From assembly GCA_965228855.1 (NCBI GenBank), contig CBDDIJ010000003.1, positions 1 through 64,000 on the forward strand: 64,000 bases of DNA, read 5' to 3'. Positions 1-52,989 of this stretch are shown piece by piece. How positions within the stretch are numbered: position 1 is the stretch's first letter; every line of letters begins with the position of its first letter. A program made the translations under genes and the position numbers. Origin of the DNA: Candidatus Obscuribacterales bacterium (GTDB lineage: Bacteria > Cyanobacteriota > Vampirovibrionia > Obscuribacterales > Obscuribacteraceae). The notes below the pieces were generated by a model, which made no database searches, was not told where the DNA came from, and worked only from the letters and a program-made list of their open reading frames with translations.

Positions 1-196
1 CCAGTATTAATTGTAAAATTCTAAATATATCGAAAGATATAATAATCTAATTCAAAGCATTAAAATAAATCAATTCAGTTATAGTAAATAAGAATAATAT
101 TCGATAAGTAATTCATTTAATAAAGTCCTCTTGTATAATACTGGATTGTATTTCAATAAAATTATGAAGCAATCGACTCAACAAATGTTCTAATTA

Positions 197-1844
197 TTAT
201 TTAGCATTATTCATTTTAGAGTAATGCCCTTCATCACTTATATCACTTTTCTTTCTGAGAAAATTGACTTCGAGTTTATTTTGAGATATCGAAACAGGAC
301 GCCGTTCAGTCTCTTTGGAATTTTCGTAAAACGAAGGAATATATGAGTCAGTACTATACTTCTTTGTTGCTCTTTTATTTGTAATTATTAGAAATTGAAT
401 AACTCTGCTTCTCCTCCTTTTGATCTACCGTAAATAATGAGATTAAAATAGATTTTCGTGGCAAAAAAGAGTAAATTACTTTCGTCCATTCCACCTGCAT
501 CTCTGTCAAACTTAAATTTTTGTTGTTTATAAACTACTGGTGAACTGTCAAGTTCGTTAGGTTGCTTTCCGTATTTGTTAAATAGCTCCTTGTTTAAGAT
601 TGATGGTAAACTCCTGTAATTGTTTTTGCTTTCGAGTTAGAGGAGATTCTCCTAGATTCGTAATAAATCCATGTCCTGCATTTCTTTTATTTGATTCGGA
701 CATTGGCAAACTTTGCTCAAAGTTTGTCGAGAAATACTTATGAAATCCAAACTCTTTTGTATCTGATACATTGAGTGGGGCTGTAATATTGCTGACTGCA
801 GATCCAAGTTTTGATGATTTTGGATATCCTCCTGAATACCCTCTCTCAATTCCATGAGACATACTCATTTTCTCTTCCTCCTTGAATCTCTATATTATCG
901 ATATATTAGTTTTATTTGATATTAAAGGAAATAGACTTTGATATTATAATGAAATTTCTAATATATGTATTATTTTATTAACTATTGTGATCTATTATAA
1001 ATTTTTTAAATAAATGATTGAATTTTCTCACTTCTTTTCTAATAATTTTTTTTAATATATCATATTAATTAGTTTTATTTTACTTGTAGTTAAAATAATT
1101 TTAAACTTTAAATTTATTTATAAAAATTGCTGCTTTATATAATTTTACCAGTTGTTAATTTATACATAAATGTTTAAAAGGAAAACGATCATTAATGTTT
1201 AAAATCATTAAAAGTTTACATCACTATTGCATTTTTATTTTACAATTACTGAATCACATAAATATGCAATAGCTCTTTAAAATTTAAAATGTTGGATATT
1301 GAAATTAAGACTGATGATCGTTATTAGATTTTTTAATAAAAATTAACTTAACAATGTAAAAATAAAGATCTTATAAATTTATTCTGTTATGTTTACTTAA
1401 GAGATTTATAGTAAATTGATAAGAAAGAAAATAAGCTATTTAGGTATTTAGACGACAAATTATCCTAGACTACTCACACTTGACTTTATATCTGGGGCAT
1501 ATAAATCAGCCTGCATTGATCTGAACTGAATATCTTGCTTGTGCTGCTCTTTTTCATAATCATTAGTTTGCATGATCGTCGATCCGACATCACTTAGACT
1601 GTGATGGTTATTTCGTATGTTTCCTTCTTTTTAAACCCGCTTTCAAATCAACTTGATTTAGTTCTGAATTGAACGAATAATTCTGTGAAATTGCTCTTTT
1701 ATTTCTTTCGTTTGATTTTGGAGAAACAGAAAAATTCTGAATATCAGAATCCTGTATCGGGTTTGAGGCATTTAGTACAATTCCAAGGTGGCCATCTTTA
1801 CCAATGTGAGTTGTGCGACCTTTAAACCTTTCTTTGAAATCCAT
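197..1844 (-). CDS. Spliced, +1-frameshifted ciliate gene, ~333 aa hydrophilic S/K/N/E-rich protein of unknown function
   Basis: Model: 1844-1611, skip T1610, 1609-1478; intron 1477-890 (GTGAGT...TAG, phase 0); 889-581, skip T580, 579-480; intron 479-425 (GTAATT...TAG); 424-378, skip T377, 376-200; TAA 199-197. Every segment is open and in phase. Confidence 0.65.
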
Positions 1845-1849
1845 AATAA

Positions 1850-1875
1850 TTCAATTTAATATAAATTATTTGGGG
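1850..1875 (-). other. Telomere remnant (CCCC) plus Euplotes chromosome-breakage-signal core TTGAA at 17 nt
   Basis: GGGG at 1872-1875, 17-nt spacer 1855-1871, TTCAA at 1850-1854 (TTGAA on the minus strand). Confidence 0.65.
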
Positions 1876-1933: not shown

Positions 1934-3247
1934 TTAATGTGTCGGATAGGTGATGCCGTTCAAGAAGATCTGGAAGGCACCCATGAAGAAACCAATCATC
2001 AGACCGAAGAGTTCAAGCGCATGCAACTCGTTTTGACAAATGCGATAAACCAACTTTTCCAATTGCTGAGGAGCGAATTGGGTTATCTTCGTTGCGATGA
2101 GGTCGTGCACTCCCAGAGCCGGAATCGCTTGTTCAACCATATGTCCGAGTTCTCTGTTCAAATAGGAATAGGCAAAACCTGAGATGTTGCGCTTCATTCC
2201 CGTCAACCAGTCGCCGGGTATTGCTTCAGGATTGAAACGGAGCACGGCGTTGCGAACGGTGACGATAGCTTCGTCCTCAAGTCGTTTACAGGCTTCGAGA
2301 ATGTCGTCTTTATGCTCGATCAAAAAAGTTTCGACAAACCGCACGACGTTTTTCTTCAAGTTTGCGATATTATCCAGCGGCATCGACCGCAGGTCGAAGT
2401 TTGCAATCTGTACTGCTAATTGGTGTTTTATGCCGAAACGCTTGGTCAGATCTCCAATTAGTTTGTGCGCTTCGTTCGGTTCCTTTTCCAGAAAGGTGCG
2501 CCACTCGTTGCAAACTCTTTTTACGCCGATGATGCGAGCAAGTATTCGATAGGGACCGCTGGCGTGTACGTTGATTGACTCTTCGAGAGCGTTTATGTTG
2601 GTCGGACTGAGCAGGGTAATCAATCCGTTGCGCACCTTCTCTGGTGTCAAAAAGTTTTCCATCAGACGCGCGGCGATCTCGTTTGCTTGATCGAGATTGA
2701 TGCGCGTGGTCATTAAAACCTGATCGAATAATTTTTCCGTGATTGCTGAAACTCGAGTCTCGGTGCCATGTTCCAGCGCGGATATGGTCGAGTCCACAAA
2801 TTGCCGGACAATAGTGGGAGAGAGTGTTGCAATGTCGCTCGCCAATCTGTGCAGCTTCGTTGTGTCACGAAATTCTTTGAGAAATACAGTGTCTACGAAC
2901 AGGTCGACGGTTTTGTAAATATTCTCTTCAGTAACTAATTCCTCAGCTCTTCGACGAATATCTTCCGGAGTCAATAAAGTCTCTGTGATCGTGGATGCTA
3001 CAGCTTGAGCCAACTTCGGCTGACGTTTCGGAAAAATTCCTGGTGTTAGCGGTATTTGATAGTTAGTGAACGGAACGTACCAGGCTTCGTACGGGCGGAA
3101 CAACATCCGCACTGCGAGCCAGGTGGCTATATAGCCGTGCACGGCATAAACAAGAGGCGGAAGAATTGCCTTCACAAAGAATGCCGGGAAGGAGGTGGTT
3201 GGATTTAGGAAAGACCAGTCGAAGCCCAGTCCGAAAAAGAAGTCCAC
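1934..3247 (-). CDS. DUF445 family membrane protein
   Basis: N-terminal GYIATWLAVRMLFRP...PGIFPKRQ and C-terminal ELHALELFGLMIGFFMG pattern. Confidence 0.85.
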   Translation of the reverse strand: MDFFFGLGFDWSFLNPTTSFPAFFVKAILPPLVYAVHGYIATWLAVRMLFRPYEAWYVPFTNYQIPLTPGIFPKRQPKLAQAVASTITETLLTPEDIRRRAEELVTEENIYKTVDLFVDTVFLKEFRDTTKLHRLASDIATLSPTIVRQFVDSTISALEHGTETRVSAITEKLFDQVLMTTRINLDQANEIAARLMENFLTPEKVRNGLITLLSPTNINALEESINVHASGPYRILARIIGVKRVCNEWRTFLEKEPNEAHKLIGDLTKRFGIKHQLAVQIANFDLRSMPLDNIANLKKNVVRFVETFLIEHKDDILEACKRLEDEAIVTVRNAVLRFNPEAIPGDWLTGMKRNISGFAYSYLNRELGHMVEQAIPALGVHDLIATKITQFAPQQLEKLVYRICQNELHALELFGLMIGFFMGAFQIFLNGITYPTH

Positions 3248-9454: not shown

Positions 9455-12400
9455 ATGGCGCAGTTAGAAGGAAACAGCGGGAAAAAAGATGTATCGGCAA
9501 CAGGTTCGAAAGACCCTGTAACCGAAGCGTCTTCAACCGCCAATAATGCTTTCGCTCAGAATGAGGTCAAGGCGACCCCATCTATCAGCGACACGCCTCT
9601 GTTCCAAACCACGCTGAAACAGGAAGAGACCGCAGCTGCAAGTAAATTCGCCGAGTCGATTTGGAAACCGCTGAACACCGCGGAAAAGGATAAAGACAAA
9701 GACGAACTGCCTAGCCCGCAAGCCTTCGGAATCGCTGCGGCAGAGACCACACGAGCTGAGGTGAAACCTCAGGTTGAGGTTTCGAAGTCAACCGGGGCGC
9801 TTTTTAGAAGCGGTCATGGTGACAATGAGCAAGTTATTAACAAAGTAATCGCTGTCGAGACTGGTGATAAGCAAGCGATCAATAAAGTAATTGCCACCAA
9901 TGGTGGTGAGAAGGTCGTCTCTCAAGCTTTTGAAAAGATCCCGGTTGACGGTGGCAAAAAGGACATCGGACCAGCGACCACGCTCGGCGCTGTAGCTGAC
10001 TCCATAACCAGAGAAGCCACAGCCGGAAGCTCAGGTAAGCTCAAGGTAAACACTAGTGAGTTTTTGAAAGCAGGGTCGCAGGGATTGGCGCAGTCAGCCG
10101 AGTTCAGCCCCACCCCGCGAAACGACGTCAGGCCGCTCATAAAAACTGATGCGGTACCAAATCAGGTGCTGAATCAGAAAATCGATGCTGGTGATGCAGC
10201 TTCGCGTGCTCAACGAACTTTCTCACTGGATGCGACTCCGCCCGTGCGAGTCGAAGCAAATCCTGCTATTAAAACTACTCAAGTCTTCCAACCTCCGGAC
10301 AAAATTGTCACCGCTGGCGGTGGCTTTTTTGAGATCCCTGATTCAAAAGGTAAGCCAGCTGTCGAGATTGGTAAGGGCGTCGTAGAACTCGGAAAACCTC
10401 TCGGCGATATTAATAAGCCAACTGTTGAAATAAGTAAACCCGCTGTAGAATTAAGTAAACCCGCATACGGACTTCAAACCCAACCGTCCGTCTCAGGCGA
10501 TGTAACCGTCAGCGCGCAAAAGAACCTGGTTCCCACTTCTTATGACATGCCGCCGCGTTTGCAGTTTGATAAACCGGCAATTGTTCAATCCATTACCAAC
10601 AAACAAGAAATCAATGCTGTCAGGGAAGCGAGCAATGGTGGCGGAGTCGCCCAAAATGTTTCACTCGGCAAAGTCGCTGATTTCGGAACGAGCAAATCCG
10701 ACATCGTGACCAACCGGTCAGAGCCAATCTTTGTAAGCCGCGGAGCAGAATCGCTCGCTCCGGCTATTAAACAAAATGTCGGAACTGAAAATTTTGTCAA
10801 AGCCCCGGTCAATGAACTGAAGTCTTCGGGATTCGAGCCAAAATCGCAAATTGGTGATGGCGCTTCTTATGCGAAACAAGTCGAGCCGAATATAGTGAAG
10901 AGCGGAATCTCCGTCGAACAGAGCGCTCTCAAAGATTTGATTAAAGGCGGTTCCGCTGACGTCGGTTCCATCAATAACATTCAGACGCAACGTTTTGAGC
11001 CGGGTAAATCATACAATCCGCAGGCCGAAGGTCTCAAAGTCTATGACGGCAGCAAGTCCGCTGCTGCACTAGGTGTCAACCTGAAGCAGAACATCCCGGA
11101 AGGCGATTTTGGCAAGAAATTCGGCCTGGACGTAATGCCGACGTCCAAGTCGCTCGCCAACAATCTGCAAGAACCACCGCGTGGTTTCATTGATAGCGGA
11201 AGCGGTAAGCCTTCGATAATCTATCCGAAGCCTATCGAGGGCGGTCCGGTAAACTTCAAGGATCCTCAGATCGGATCGAAACCGGAAAGTATCAAACCAT
11301 TTACTACGGCACAGGATTTCGGATCGAATGGCGCAGGCAAAATTGTCGATGGCAGCCAGCTTGTCCCTTCCGGACCGGGCAAGTTCGACAAAGTGATTGG
11401 CGGTAATGAAATTAAACAACCGGGCGATGGCGTCAGCGGCATCATCGGTAAGCCCACCGTGCCAATCGGACAGATCGACGCCGGCTCGCTCAAGCCGTTG
11501 CCGAACTTGGAGATCGGCAAGAACCCCGGTGGTCACCTGGCTGATGGCGGCGAGAAATTGCTACAAACCAGACCGAATCAGCCGGGCACTTCGGGTGGAG
11601 ACGTTACGGCTAAACCTCCTCTTACGGATTCAATAAGTCGAACGCCACCAGCAACGGTGCCGGCGGACAACTTGAACAGACAGCAACCTGGAACTACCGA
11701 TATCGGTTCAAAACCCGCCACGCCTTCCGATGGTTCGTCCTTTAAACCATCTACGCCGGCTGATGGATCCAGTGTAAAACCAGGTGTAGTAGTCAATCCT
11801 ATCGACGGAAGTATCAAGCCGGTCAGCCCCGTGAATCCGTTAAACCCCGGGGCCAATGTCCCGGAAACGAAGTTGCCGGAACCCAAGGTGTCCGCCCCGA
11901 ATGTTGAAGTACCGAAAACCGGTATCAACGCTGATCTCCCCCGGACGGCTACTGTCCCAGCGGATCTAAGACAGGCTCCGGTAACTCCTAAGCTCGACAC
12001 ATCGGCTCCTAAGGGGCCCGTCACCATTGGCGATACTATCAAGACTCCGGCGACTGCCGTCGATTCGTCAAAAGTTCCTGCAGGCGTTGATGCTGGCAAA
12101 ACTCCGGCGACAGTGAAGGATAGCCCTAAAACACCGGTCACCGCAGGTGATGCCAGCGTCCCGAAAACAGCAGTTAAGGCGGCCGATGCAACGACCGTTT
12201 CCGACCTGACGGGCAAGCCCTCCGGCCGGACAACTGCAGTCGATCCTGTCACCGCTTTTGAACAATCAACACAGCGCGTGCGCCAACTCAGCGATGCTCG
12301 CTTCGATGCAGGAATGCGAAGTGGACCGCTTGAATCGGTTTTGAACGGCCGAGTTACCCAAGTGAGAGACTTGGGAACCGATGGCGCCGGACGGTTCAGC

Positions 12401-14071
12401 GCCATCGATGGTGCTAAGAATGCAAATGGCGCTCGGCTCGATTTTGATGTACGGGCCGAGGGCGCAAGAAATTCCGGCACCAACCGTGGTATCACCGCTG
12501 ACGGTTCGGCAGCTCGCCGGGCTGTTGAAACTGTGGCATCCGGCAGAGAGCCTCAGCTTACCTCTTTCGAGCCGCAAGGCAAGAGCATCTCCAGCAAGTT
12601 CGATCCGGCCGGCAATCGCGTCGCTGAAGTTCGAGATCCGCAAGGTCGCGTTGATGCGACAAATCCAACGGCCGGAATTGGTCGCATACCACTCTCCGGC
12701 AGCGTGAAAGTCGCCGATTTCCAGCCTGGCAGTGCGGCACAGTCAGTAGACGGTAGAGTCGTTGGTGATGTCGGCAAACTTCCGGGCGTTCGAGGTTTTG
12801 GCCAGGTCGGCGACGGCAAGAGCTTTGTTTCGCACGGCGAAATCAGAGCGCCGCGCGGCGAATCACATCGCTACATAACCGGCTTGGAATTGGCTCTGAT
12901 TCTTTCTATCGCTGGCATCGCGAAGATCCGACATGATGCTCGCAGTGGTGCCGCCAGAATGGAAGGACGAACATGGTCCATAACTCGGCAGAACGGTCGT
13001 CCGCTCATTTACATCGATGGTCGCCAGAATCCTCTGCAACCGCAGCGCGCCTTCGGCAAAGGTGATGGTTCCTTCCGGATCATGATTTCTACCACAGGCG
13101 ATCAAGCTGCGAAACTTTCGACTCGCACCATGCGAACAACTGATATCGCTCAGACCAAGACAGTTGATGCCGCCGGCAAAAATGCGCTCAATCTCGGTCT
13201 GCTGGGCAAATATCACTACCTCAACTACTTCGGCAAGAACATGCCGTCTATGAACTATTACGGACAATTCCGTTCCACCAGCTACACAGGCAGCATGGGA
13301 TTAGCATTTGTGATGGCTGCTTCCGGTATGACTCGTCCGGCAGGCGGAATGGAAACTATACAGGGTATGGAAAGGCTCAATCCGGTCACGATGGGGCCTG
13401 CCGACAGAATCAGAATGCAAAATCAAAGTTTGCTGACTCAGTTCGGCAAATTCAATCTGGATGCGGCACTGAGCTCGTCTGCCAACGGGCGAGATATCCG
13501 CGAGAAAGAAGGCAAAGACGAGAAGCAAGACAATTCGTTTTCAGTTCTCGACGATTATCAGGATTTCTTGAATCGCCTGGATGGTTTTTCCAAGAGGAAA
13601 GAGGAAACCGAAGACGAAGCGGCGGTCATCAATAGAAGGCTTTCGTTCGGTGTCGAAGAACTGTACGATGAAACAAAAGATGATGACAAAGCCGAAAACA
13701 TCATCGAAAAAGATGATACCAATGGCAATGCGCTGTCTCAAGTCCTTCGTCGTCCGAAATGGGTTATTCAGGCTGGAGAGACCCTGGATGGCCTTGCAGA
13801 GCGCTTCTTCGCGAATGCCGATCTGGGCTGGCTGATCGCTGATTTGAACCGTGCACTCGTCCGTGAAACATACATCGACAACAAGAGAATCGTAGAATTG
13901 CAAAGCCGACTCGAGATCGAACTTCCTGTCTGGCAGGACATTCAAAAATTCAATCAAAACAGAAAGAAAAACTGGACTGCCGAAAATCTGGTTACGATTG
14001 TCGTCGAGCGTCAAATAGATCTTGAAGTTGTAGAGTCTACTCTGGCAAAAGTGGTTGGTGCCGAAGCGTAG
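9455..14071 (+). CDS. Giant (1538 aa) low-complexity protein with a C-terminal LysM-like domain
   Basis: 4.6-kb ORF; P/K/G/S-rich repeats; hydrophobic segment RYITGLELALILSIAGIAKIR; C-terminal WVIQAGETLDGLAERFFANADLGWLIADLN. Confidence 0.8.
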   Translation: MAQLEGNSGKKDVSATGSKDPVTEASSTANNAFAQNEVKATPSISDTPLFQTTLKQEETAAASKFAESIWKPLNTAEKDKDKDELPSPQAFGIAAAETTRAEVKPQVEVSKSTGALFRSGHGDNEQVINKVIAVETGDKQAINKVIATNGGEKVVSQAFEKIPVDGGKKDIGPATTLGAVADSITREATAGSSGKLKVNTSEFLKAGSQGLAQSAEFSPTPRNDVRPLIKTDAVPNQVLNQKIDAGDAASRAQRTFSLDATPPVRVEANPAIKTTQVFQPPDKIVTAGGGFFEIPDSKGKPAVEIGKGVVELGKPLGDINKPTVEISKPAVELSKPAYGLQTQPSVSGDVTVSAQKNLVPTSYDMPPRLQFDKPAIVQSITNKQEINAVREASNGGGVAQNVSLGKVADFGTSKSDIVTNRSEPIFVSRGAESLAPAIKQNVGTENFVKAPVNELKSSGFEPKSQIGDGASYAKQVEPNIVKSGISVEQSALKDLIKGGSADVGSINNIQTQRFEPGKSYNPQAEGLKVYDGSKSAAALGVNLKQNIPEGDFGKKFGLDVMPTSKSLANNLQEPPRGFIDSGSGKPSIIYPKPIEGGPVNFKDPQIGSKPESIKPFTTAQDFGSNGAGKIVDGSQLVPSGPGKFDKVIGGNEIKQPGDGVSGIIGKPTVPIGQIDAGSLKPLPNLEIGKNPGGHLADGGEKLLQTRPNQPGTSGGDVTAKPPLTDSISRTPPATVPADNLNRQQPGTTDIGSKPATPSDGSSFKPSTPADGSSVKPGVVVNPIDGSIKPVSPVNPLNPGANVPETKLPEPKVSAPNVEVPKTGINADLPRTATVPADLRQAPVTPKLDTSAPKGPVTIGDTIKTPATAVDSSKVPAGVDAGKTPATVKDSPKTPVTAGDASVPKTAVKAADATTVSDLTGKPSGRTTAVDPVTAFEQSTQRVRQLSDARFDAGMRSGPLESVLNGRVTQVRDLGTDGAGRFSAIDGAKNANGARLDFDVRAEGARNSGTNRGITADGSAARRAVETVASGREPQLTSFEPQGKSISSKFDPAGNRVAEVRDPQGRVDATNPTAGIGRIPLSGSVKVADFQPGSAAQSVDGRVVGDVGKLPGVRGFGQVGDGKSFVSHGEIRAPRGESHRYITGLELALILSIAGIAKIRHDARSGAARMEGRTWSITRQNGRPLIYIDGRQNPLQPQRAFGKGDGSFRIMISTTGDQAAKLSTRTMRTTDIAQTKTVDAAGKNALNLGLLGKYHYLNYFGKNMPSMNYYGQFRSTSYTGSMGLAFVMAASGMTRPAGGMETIQGMERLNPVTMGPADRIRMQNQSLLTQFGKFNLDAALSSSANGRDIREKEGKDEKQDNSFSVLDDYQDFLNRLDGFSKRKEETEDEAAVINRRLSFGVEELYDETKDDDKAENIIEKDDTNGNALSQVLRRPKWVIQAGETLDGLAERFFANADLGWLIADLNRALVRETYIDNKRIVELQSRLEIELPVWQDIQKFNQNRKKNWTAENLVTIVVERQIDLEVVESTLAKVVGAEA
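10352..10465 (+). repeat. Degenerate 21-nt (7-aa) tandem repeat in the giant gene
   Basis: KPAVEIG/KGVVELG/KPLGDIN/KPTVEIS/KPAVELS/KPA. Confidence 0.75.
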
Positions 14072-50358: not shown

Positions 50359-52989
50359 CTATAGCAAGTCGAGCGCGTCCACGTCGACTGCAAGTGAAAG
50401 TTCTTTAGGAACTTTCTTATTCCGCAGAAATTGCAGTATCGCATCCATGACGGTTTCATCATCTTTTACCTTCATGAGCAAGTGGAATCGAAATCGATTT
50501 TTCACCTTTTCGATGACGCACGGTGATGGTCCCAGAATCTGCAAAGCGGGCTCGCTAGCCTTGTCTTCGAGAAAGACGCTAAGTTCTTCGGCCAGTTTTT
50601 CCAGACCGGATTCGACCTCTTGAGGGTCGGGCCCTTGAAGAACGACGCGGATGATTCGGCTAAATGGCGGGTAGGAGAAGGCCTCGCGCGCTTCCAGCTC
50701 CGTCTTGAAGAAGTTTGCAAAGTCATGGTGACGGGCGTATTTGAAAACTTTCAGTTCAGGATTATAAGTTTGTAAGATCACTTTTCCCGGCTTCAATCCG
50801 CGTCCGGCACGACCGGAAACCTGGCAAAGAAGCTGAAACCCGCGCTCCATCGAGCGATAGTCAGGCATGTTCAGCGAGGCGTCCGCAACAAGAACGCCTA
50901 CCAGCGTCACATTGGCGATGTCCAGCCCCTTCGCGACCATTTGCGTGCCTATGAGGACGTCGGCTTCGCCAGCGGCGAAATCCTCGAAAATTTCTCGATA
51001 GGCTCCTTTTCTCTGCGTGACGTCACTGTCCAATCTCAAGGTTCGAGCGCCTGGAAATTTGTTGCGAACGGTCTCTTCCACTTGCTGAGTGCCTAATCCG
51101 TACTCCTTGATGAATGGACTTTCGCAAGATGGACATTTGACGATATTGTGTCTTTCGTAGCCGCAATGGTGGCACGAGAGATAGCCCTCGATCGACCCTT
51201 CCGGGCGAACTCGTCCAGCCATCATATGCGCTGTTCTGGCGTTCTTATGGTAAACCAGAGAGACGCTGCAGTTGTTACATCTGATCACGTAACCGCATGC
51301 TCTGCAAAACACGTGGCTGGCATAGCCGCGTCTGTTCATAAGCAAAATGACTTGCTCACCGACGTCCAGGCGATTCTCGATAGCCTGACTGAGCGCGGTC
51401 GAAAGAATCGATCTATTACCCAGGCTCAGCTGCTGGCGCATATCAATGATTTGCACTTCAGGCATGGCCTGGCTGTGGACGCGCTCCGGTAGTTCCAGAA
51501 TTCTGCCTGCCTGGCTTGCTCTGTGGTATGTGGCGACATCCGGCGTGGCGCTGCCGAAAAGCACAAGCGCTCCGGTTCTGCGCGCCTTTTCGATGGCTAC
51601 TTCCTTGGCGTTATAACGCGGGCTCGGTGTGCTTTGCTTGTAACTGCTGTCATGTTCTTCATCCAGAATAATCAGTCCAAGATCGGGTAAATGGGCGAGG
51701 ATTGCCGAACGTGCCCCGAGGAGAACGGAGACGTCGCCGCTTCGCAATCTTCGCCAGGTGTCGTAGCGCTCCCCTGGGCTGATTGCGCTGTGCCAGATCG
51801 AAACTTTGTCTCCAAAGCGGTCTTTCAAGCGTGATGCTAGCTGCGGAGTCAAGCTGATTTCCGGGACGAGCAAAAGAGCAGTTCGCTTCGCTTCAAGCGT
51901 CTCTTCGATGAGGCGAAGGTAAACCTCGGTTTTTCCCGAGCCTGTGACCCCGTGAAGCAACCAGGGTGGCTCCGGTTGATCGTTCGGTTTAACTTGACGG
52001 GACAGAGTCGTTTTCAATTGTTCTGACAGAGTGTTGACCACTTGTTCCTGAGCTCTGGTCAGGGATGGTTTTGGTGGCACCGTTCGTTTAGCAGACGTGT
52101 ATCCATCCATCGGATTTCTGAATACTTCGGTCTCCTGAAGCTGGATTACGCCTTCTGCTTCCAGTTTGTGAACGGTACTGTATGTGGTGCGGGCGCCTTT
52201 CAACAAATCGGAGAGATTCATCGTTCCGTTGTGCCGCTCCAGCAGCGCCGTTATCTCTTTTTGTCTTGCAGTTTTAGGCTCTTCAGCTCCGCGCACCACT
52301 GTTAAAACGGTCTTGGGACCTGTTTTGGCGCTCGTCTCTGCGACCACTTCAATCACGCCCTCGTGCTTGAGATACGTAAGCGCCTGAAAGAATTGGGCTT
52401 GACCCTTTCTTGCTACTCTGCCGAAACGCTGGCGTAGTGTAGTTACCGAAACACCTTTAGCGCTTGAGGCTCCAAGCACGTTTAAAACGGTCGCTGCGTT
52501 CGGATTTTTCTCAGCCAGCGCCGCTTTCATTTTCTCAACTTCATCCTGTTTCAGTTTGTCTTTGATGCGAGCCACTCGTTTTATTCTTGGCGCGAGGCTG
52601 GCTGGTATGGCAGCCTGGACCACATCACTTAAACGAGCGCAAGATTTAAAGGCCAGCCAGCCCAGAAAGTCGATGTAGTCTTTGTCAAAGAGCGGGTCAG
52701 GTTCCAGGACCTCAGCTATTTCTTTTATTTTGAAGTCGGCATCGCATTCGCCTTTTAATGAAACAACGTAGCCGCCTACCGTGTCTTGATGTCCAAAAGG
52801 GACGAGAACCTGCGCTCCGACAAAAACTTCGTCTAGCAAAAATTCCGGCACTTTATAAGTAAACAAACGATCTTTTAGATCGCGCGCTTGCAGGTCTACT
52901 ACGATTTCAGCGTACAGTGGCGAAAGCAACTTCCAATTCCACGGGGATACGGACGGACTCCTATCATCAAAGTATAGAGTGCTAATCAT
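50359..52989 (-). CDS. priA: Primosomal protein N' (start uncertain)
   Basis: GVTGSGKTEVY, DEEHDSSYKQ, SATP, Cys clusters, GTQMVAKG, QVSGRAGR. Confidence 0.95.
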   Translation of the reverse strand: MISTLYFDDRSPSVSPWNWKLLSPLYAEIVVDLQARDLKDRLFTYKVPEFLLDEVFVGAQVLVPFGHQDTVGGYVVSLKGECDADFKIKEIAEVLEPDPLFDKDYIDFLGWLAFKSCARLSDVVQAAIPASLAPRIKRVARIKDKLKQDEVEKMKAALAEKNPNAATVLNVLGASSAKGVSVTTLRQRFGRVARKGQAQFFQALTYLKHEGVIEVVAETSAKTGPKTVLTVVRGAEEPKTARQKEITALLERHNGTMNLSDLLKGARTTYSTVHKLEAEGVIQLQETEVFRNPMDGYTSAKRTVPPKPSLTRAQEQVVNTLSEQLKTTLSRQVKPNDQPEPPWLLHGVTGSGKTEVYLRLIEETLEAKRTALLLVPEISLTPQLASRLKDRFGDKVSIWHSAISPGERYDTWRRLRSGDVSVLLGARSAILAHLPDLGLIILDEEHDSSYKQSTPSPRYNAKEVAIEKARRTGALVLFGSATPDVATYHRASQAGRILELPERVHSQAMPEVQIIDMRQQLSLGNRSILSTALSQAIENRLDVGEQVILLMNRRGYASHVFCRACGYVIRCNNCSVSLVYHKNARTAHMMAGRVRPEGSIEGYLSCHHCGYERHNIVKCPSCESPFIKEYGLGTQQVEETVRNKFPGARTLRLDSDVTQRKGAYREIFEDFAAGEADVLIGTQMVAKGLDIANVTLVGVLVADASLNMPDYRSMERGFQLLCQVSGRAGRGLKPGKVILQTYNPELKVFKYARHHDFANFFKTELEAREAFSYPPFSRIIRVVLQGPDPQEVESGLEKLAEELSVFLEDKASEPALQILGPSPCVIEKVKNRFRFHLLMKVKDDETVMDAILQFLRNKKVPKELSLAVDVDALDLL

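Follow-up and report, generated by a model that had tools for sequence, protein, structure and literature searches.

The window, that is, the whole stretch of 64,000 nucleotides analysed here, is the start of a 3.76-Mb contig in a bacterial assembly of 8.2 Mb and six contigs. GC content is 12–38% in bases 1–1900 and approximately 50% in the remainder of the window, where ordinary bacterial genes, e.g. those for a DUF445 protein and FtsZ, are found. The DUF445 gene has a GC3 of 0.55, versus 0.285 for the gene on the minus strand of the AT-rich piece, to which this report is devoted (table 1). One bacterial ORF further on (9455–14071, plus strand, 1,538 residues) gave no Pfam match at E ≤ 0.001.

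As far as comparison of sequences can tell, translation of the minus-strand gene very probably requires the ribosome to slip by +1 at three internal stop codons. The three stop hexamers and the two GT-AG introns, as put forward in an original prediction made from the DNA letters, were reproduced at exactly the same coordinates with all pieces in phase. Indeed, skipping the T at 1610, 580 and 377 gives 333 codons, the predicted product size, with shifts after residues 78, 225 and 274 and with a true stop at 202–197 that is itself a fourth AAA-TAA. The most conserved part of the gene is exon 2. On genomic DNA, the open +1 frames extend over 49, 63 and 59 codons at sites 1, 2 and 3, lengths reached by 15, 8 and 10, respectively, of 207 other TAR positions and frames in the same piece. 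The coding path contains no TGA; thus, this gene alone is no test of TGA being read as cysteine.

Table 1. Features of the AT-rich piece and of its first bacterial neighbour (window coordinates; all on the minus strand).
Feature	Position	Strand	Basis or remark
Last CCCC of the ciliate 5' telomere	1872..1875	-	sequence; four telomere letters visible in the window
5' subtelomeric leader, telomere to ATG, 27 nt	1845..1871	-	sequence
TTGAA chromosome-breakage motif	1850..1854	-	nucleotides 18–22 from the telomere
Exon 1, residues 1–122, with site 1	1478..1844	-	homologues P0020, P0021, P0022; 4/5 allelic changes synonymous
Site 1, AAA-TAA-C, +1	1608..1613	-	P0022 read-through
Intron 1, 588 nt, phase 0, GTGAGT...TAG	890..1477	-	predicted splicing
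Exon 2, residues 123–258 plus one base, with site 2	480..889	-	9/11 allelic changes synonymous
Site 2, ATT-TAA-C, +1, minor motif	578..583	-	P0008 read-through
Intron 2, 55 nt, GTAATT...TAG	425..479	-	predicted splicing
Exon 3, residues 259–333, with site 3 and terminal AAA-TAA	197..424	-	P0008; 2/2 allelic changes synonymous
Site 3, AAA-TAA-A, +1	375..380	-	P0008 read-through
3' trailer	1..196	-	chromosome runs at least 60 bases past the window start (X1 contig)
DUF445 gene, first bacterial gene past the junction	1934..3247	-	Pfam PF04286, E 1.3e-29; outside the finding

The anatomy of the piece is that of a ciliate chromosome end. Read along the minus strand, the CCCC is followed by 17 bases, by TTGAA and then by the ATG at 1844; the telomere evidence consists of these four letters at one end, the 3' end of the chromosome lying outside the window. 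A 1,948-bp contig from run X1 matches window positions 1–1875 over its own positions 61–1934, without mismatches and with a single gap, which falls in intron 1. TTGAA is named as the chromosome breakage sequence in the available part of PMC12513430, and its location at nucleotides 18–22 from the chromosome end, described for E. vannus in passages of PMC10901763, is where it is found in the window piece, as on macronuclear nanochromosomes of Euplotes. The same TTGAA–telomere spacing recurs at 52,926 and 55,002 of contig C4 in this assembly (G000:C4). For E. aediculatus, the sections of PMC10449743 available describe 5' subtelomeric regions with a peak at 40 bp and an intron length mode of 26 nt. 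The piece thereby resembles Euplotes nanochromosomes in its size of approximately 2 kb, its short 5' leader, the TTGAA at 18–22 from the C4 telomere end and its GT-AG introns, whereas it differs in that four telomere letters remain at the junction, the 3' end lies outside the window and one intron is far longer than the 26-nt mode. The assignment to ‘Euplotes’ is a putative one, based on genome anatomy and not on a match to a named homologue. As an explanation of the whole, we consider it likely (probability of roughly 0.88) that positions 1–1875 are most of a macronuclear nanochromosome of approximately 1.95 kb from a Euplotes-type ciliate.

With exon 2a as query, a phmmer search of 1.84 billion representatives returned 15 hits at E ≤ 0.001, 14 of which were read as homologues. 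P0016 (E 3.6e-5), a Thr/Val-rich repeat protein, was dropped. At each of the three junctions, a natural homologue reads through in one frame, namely P0022 at site 1 and P0008 at sites 2 and 3. The +1 frame scored 75 versus 10 and 12 for the other frames at site 1 (P0022, 58% identical), 125 versus 17 and 25 at site 2, and 230 versus 20 and 25 at site 3 (both P0008). Homologues from non-euplotid taxa aligning in other frames had been named beforehand as evidence against the model; on inspection, only the +1 frame matches, none of 1000 shuffles per site scoring as high and the 0 and +2 frames staying at chance level. P0008, 75% identical over model residues 189–332, carries the predicted residues through both sites and has its C-terminal end close to that of the model. 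At site 2, P0013, P0009, P0005, P0007, P0010, P0014 and P0017 likewise have the KYG motif in frame. At site 1, P0020 (97% identical) and P0021 (81% identical) both stop at K78, just where the first internal stop lies. None of 132 candidates was a longer homologue of exon 2, and none of 7,999 sequences scored by alignment was either, so that this search gave no full-length homologue, a weak negative; in the metagenome_contigs loci, 163 pattern matches were obtained and none was confirmed. Two relatives, P0003 and P0021, look like two pieces of an orthologue and are each recorded on an 889,832-bp public metagenome contig, probably the same one, which would be another chimera or germline DNA.

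The possibility of indel errors at the stops, raised in the original prediction, was checked on matching contigs, and no exon indel was found in any of the four sequencing runs compared. All three sites lie within the contigs of X1, X2 and X3, whereas X8 takes in site 3 but only reaches the edge of site 1, where its contig ends (1613); site 3 is identical in all four, and site 1 is without indel in X1, X2 and X3. As X1 and X2 come from a single sample, X2 and X3 share an allele and an equal bacterial contig, and one run is possibly the source of the assembly, these runs represent two or three independent observations. Across the four, indels between contigs occur in introns and never in exons, the single-base ones, at 997, 1007, 1047 and 1334, all falling in intron 1. 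Both introns are retained in all four runs, with no splice joint. X2 and X3, taken for possible RNA runs on their word share of approximately 0.6, were rejected as such because both introns are kept; the word share reflects an allele that is approximately 2–3% divergent.

This second allele, seen in X2 and X3, carries 18 exonic substitutions, 15 of them synonymous in the model frames and 16 at what the model makes third codon positions (P = 1.7e-6 against an expected 1/3). In the segments directly after a shift, all seven allelic changes are at third positions and six are silent; in the unshifted frame, the same seven would all be first-position changes and three would create stops. The C>T change at 577, for instance, is silent in the +1 frame only. 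Intron 2 of the second allele lacks 5 nt and retains its AG end (an end worked out by hand). The two exon-spanning contigs of X2, with 15 and 6 differences, are fully accounted for in this count, which excludes exon 3 below 258 and drops intron and trailer rows. Also dropped beforehand were 13 substitutions at 173–246 and a deletion at 218, rows that track a 4,885-bp high-depth unrelated contig aligning only over 140–266 with 18 mismatches; where they were dropped (173–246), the window is matched letter for letter by contigs from each of the four runs. Judging by these substitution patterns, the reading frames are under selection.

Three other readings of the gene have to be weighed against this evidence. 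Were the three extra T's inactivating insertions in a decayed gene, or sequencing artefacts, every site might well be absent from at least one homologue, as is the case, and the assembly and X1 do disagree by a single base in at least one place (997). However, independent contigs of four runs carry identical letters, both alleles keep all three sites with 15 of 18 changes synonymous (including downstream of every site), an orthologue only 81% identical stops at the same K78, and all three insertions happen to make TAA after AAA or ATT, so that decay or error is very unlikely. That TAA is instead reassigned to glutamine (code 6) or read through in frame has in its favour that TAA as glutamine is common in ciliates. 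The original prediction had rejected this code on the ground of a TGA within approximately six codons after two of the sites; the rejection stands, whereas the detail does not, TGA being found 5, 9 and 8 codons downstream of the three stops, hence after all of them. Moreover, the 0 frame is unlike the homologues (its scores were equalled or exceeded by 911, 595 and 586 of 1000 shuffles), which leaves reassignment or in-frame read-through a practically negligible probability. The last reading concerns intron 1 and divides the locus into two genes: A (1844–1462), with one shift, and B, starting at the ATG at 868, with two. The 588 nt taken as intron 1 would then be intergenic. This reading draws on the exon 1 +1 frame running on to a TAA at 1462, on the in-frame ATG at 868 being conserved in the orthologue P0003, on the unusual length of an intron far above the 26-nt E. 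aediculatus mode, on the lack of any spliced read in the four runs compared and of a full-length homologue, and on the existence of multi-gene nanochromosomes (according to the part of PMC10449743 available). Yet P0015 has exon-1-like and exon-2-like sequence colinear in one ORF, the GTGAGT donor and TAG acceptor are good and in phase, most Euplotes nanochromosomes carry one gene (same source, same extent), and internal-methionine starts would be expected of a gene caller blind to introns. We therefore regard two genes as rather improbable, while the one-gene reading via intron 1 is less firmly supported than the rest of the model.

Several further features bear on the introns. GC content is 17.7% in intron 1 versus 34.7% in the exons, and alternative in-phase acceptors for this intron lie 9, 12 and 18 nt further on (881, 878 and 872). 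In P0015, an extra hydrophobic stretch lies between the exon-1-like and exon-2-like parts; the linkage of the two was matched by 4 of 2000 shuffles (tblastn E 0.002), with a weak pairwise E of 0.008. P0008 carries 11 extra residues at the position of intron 2. As the incoming frame there has no stop before 424, a stop-triggered shift cannot replace intron 2, and splicing is needed. A single euplotid gene with three +1 shifts and two introns, as originally proposed, is thus supported by its homologues, its alleles, the absence of exon indels and the chromosome end; what the proposal missed is the setting of this gene, in foreign DNA that is joined to a bacterial contig.

The junction between ciliate and bacterial DNA lies at 1875/1876, at the ciliate telomere. 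The ciliate contigs of X1 and X2 end 14 letters past 1875, and a 116,926-bp bacterial contig (X2/X3) covers 1875–2600 from its interior, with other sequence to the left of 1875. The sister genome G007 is 96% identical to the right of the junction and continues leftward, contiguously, into a kinase gene of 50% GC. The junction is absent from the X1, X2 and X3 contigs and from the four same-genus loci compared, in which the ciliate piece had no match. Since the ciliate and bacterial pieces are separate in independent contigs and in the sister genome, assembly contamination is indicated rather than gene transfer. Presumably, a ciliate nanochromosome was joined by its telomere to a broken bacterial contig end through an assembly or library error. 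A real transfer, in which a ciliate chromosome integrated via its telomere into the bacterial chromosome, would account for the join being present in the assembly, for a second join on C4 that likewise falls at the first G4 of a telomere, and for the bacterial left flank of G007 having no close match in this assembly. It is nonetheless most unlikely, as the X2/X3 bacterial contig crosses 1875 into other sequence, the X1 and X2 ciliate contigs stop 14 letters beyond it, G007 is contiguous, and the joins are found where contigs begin with AT-rich DNA, in an assembly with several GC regimes; besides, multi-domain chimeric contigs are a documented error of long-read metagenome assembly (bioRxiv 10.1101/2025.04.22.649783, in the passages available). 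Contamination resembles those chimeras in its abrupt GC shift, in eukaryotic and bacterial DNA on one contig and in the occurrence of separate molecules elsewhere, and differs from them in that both junctions fall exactly at a telomeric G4 tract, the available passages of that source describing no ciliate or telomere junctions. Among the matches listed, as judged by titles and abstract openings, no work on ciliate nanochromosomes as chimeras in metagenome-assembled genomes was found.

Some observations around the junction stand apart. The kinase gene flanking it in the sister genome (L006:1-1344) has no close match in this assembly, and bacterial sequence is therefore missing at the point of ciliate attachment. 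A 5,671-bp X3 contig matches window positions 1402–1848 and then departs into 5.2 kb of other, unexplained sequence; it is a germline copy, a longer chromosome or a misjoin. Other breaks in composition were observed at the start of C1 (1–500, 26% GC) and as blocks of 63–69% GC at the start of C2 and at 56–182 kb of C4, versus 50% in the main genome. At several points, the assembly has the look of a chimera.

If the gene behaves as other Euplotes genes do, its mRNA would be spliced twice, losing both GT-AG introns, and shifted three times. At each of the three UAA codons far from the poly(A) tail, the ribosome would not terminate, would skip the U and continue in the +1 frame, and termination would be expected only once it reaches the fourth site, again an AAA-UAA, close to the 3' end. 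In this scheme, the frames come from homologues and alleles and the behaviour of the ribosome from the Euplotes literature. The accessible part of PMC10235951 describes near-complete frameshifting at internal UAA and UAG in Euplotes, with termination needing a poly(A) tail nearby, and reports that about a fifth of Euplotes genes shift, some with up to eight sites; two shifts in one Euplotes protein were demonstrated by mass spectrometry (PMC5011710, available portion). The prevalence of AAA-TAR over ATT-TAR, stated in the original prediction, matches the motif list published in PMC4759687, where the part available gives 3,489 genes for AAA-TAR and 28 for ATT-TAR. The window gene agrees with the system described for E. 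octocarinatus (PMC4759687, PMC5011710) and for the genus (PMC10235951), as far as these sources were available, in its internal TAA after AAA (two sites) or ATT (one site), its +1 continuation, its several sites and its use of the same hexamer as terminator at the 3' end. It differs in having no Pfam family or named homologue, in the density of three sites per 333 residues and in the comparative nature of its support. As there is no such family or homologue, a BLASTX-type screen of the kind described in the available part of PMC4759687 would likely miss this gene. Classical regulated +1 frameshifting (RF2/prfB and antizyme, as covered in that part of PMC4759687) shares the +1 slip at a stop codon, but is partial, stimulated and regulatory, whereas frameshifting of the Euplotes type is said to be near-complete and to need no signal.

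Within the family, the shift sites appear to come and go. P0003, P0006 and P0015 end in lysine mid-family, and P0008 aligns over its first 20 residues with the window translated off frame (score 30 versus −4 and −16). From these Lys-ending ORFs and the off-frame N-terminus, we infer up to four further candidate shift positions in the relatives P0003, P0006, P0015 and P0008, although an intron or a contig end could explain any given truncated one. As each site is absent in some relative and others apparently lie elsewhere, the sites are most likely near-neutral single-T insertions. Most polymorphic +1 sites arise via T insertion, according to the portion of PMC12275403 available, and strong selection against new non-AAA sites was estimated in PMC10235951 (available part). 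Like the single-T gains and losses of these two sources, each site here is present in one relative and absent in another, and the residues flanking sites 2 and 3 match P0008 exactly, as expected for a T inserted before AA; the difference is that the nucleotide events would here be read back from protein, with gain and loss unpolarised. That the sites are leaky, selected switches rather than neutral scars is unlikely. In that event, partial termination at site 1, which is shared by orthologues with no more than 81% identity, would set free the N-terminal 78 residues as a product of their own, and the stop/shift decision of Euplotes, treated as all-or-none in current work, would offer a regulated choice of isoform.

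The 333-residue product is basic and rich in Ser, Lys and Asn, with 65% disorder-promoting residues and a net charge of +14 by composition. AlphaFold on the homologue P0009 gave a mean pLDDT of 58.6 and a pTM of 0.20, with one confident helix on the conserved KQKQL motif; the product is accordingly modelled as largely disordered, with few conserved short motifs and one predicted helix. No Pfam family was found in any of the three window segments, eight proteins giving only sub-threshold matches, and the best ESM Atlas match with P0008 (0.79) is at chance level. A docking or scaffold protein regulated by phosphorylation is a tentative guess at its role.

As the recoding mechanism is already known, the biological surprise is small: recoding is established, three sites per gene are within the known range, and novelty is confined to a largely disordered protein family, without a name in the databases searched, and to the coming and going of its shift sites between relatives. 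An orthologue may already figure in published tables of Euplotes frameshift genes. The gene has three sites within 333 residues and, for every one of them, a relative that reads through, which makes it a compact natural system in which to test how shift sites are gained and lost; its ATT-TAA site is kept in two alleles despite the strong selection estimated against new non-AAA sites (PMC10235951, available part). The other consequence concerns quality control: approximately 57 kb of ciliate DNA are joined at telomere ends to bacterial contigs in a species-representative bacterial assembly, and ciliate DNA fused in this way is open to misreading as gene transfer or as broken bacterial genes.

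Most of that DNA is on C4, whose first 55,027 bases (G000:C4:1-55,027, loci L001-L003 and L011) are gene-dense, euplotid-type DNA of approximately 55 kb joined to bacterial DNA of 66% GC at a telomeric G4; the join comes directly after TTCAA, 17 bases and GGGG. An internal telomere remnant at 52,948 sets off the last piece of approximately 2 kb. As the first 53 kb contain no internal telomere, they may derive from the germline or represent a somatic chromosome of unusual length. This region encodes eukaryotic proteins (named by reading of the sequences) and has in-frame TGA, e.g. in a frame of 1,038 codons; TGA, which stands for cysteine in the euplotid code, occurs as an in-frame sense codon six times in four of five genes, and alignment with PDB entries did not single out its residue. 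Among the coding-like ORF ends on C4, 19 of 83 have AAA before the TAR, versus 36 of 530 other ends (P = 2e-5), and a +1 frame of at least 40 codons follows 10 of the 19 AAA ends versus 9 of 64 others (P = 0.001). GC3 of the C4 genes is 0.25–0.31, the window gene having 0.285, and the C4 ciliate DNA may come from another species than the window gene. Back-to-back TTCAA/TTGAA motifs show no preferred spacing in C4. An element of approximately 1 kb (L001:6996-8026, G000:C4) with GC-rich terminal inverted repeats of approximately 90 bp resembles a non-autonomous transposon, and would fit a germline origin. Candidate AAA-TAR +1 sites on C4 include those with stops at 276, 16242, 18840, 19626, 26510 and 44257, among others, with +1 frames of 77–246 codons.
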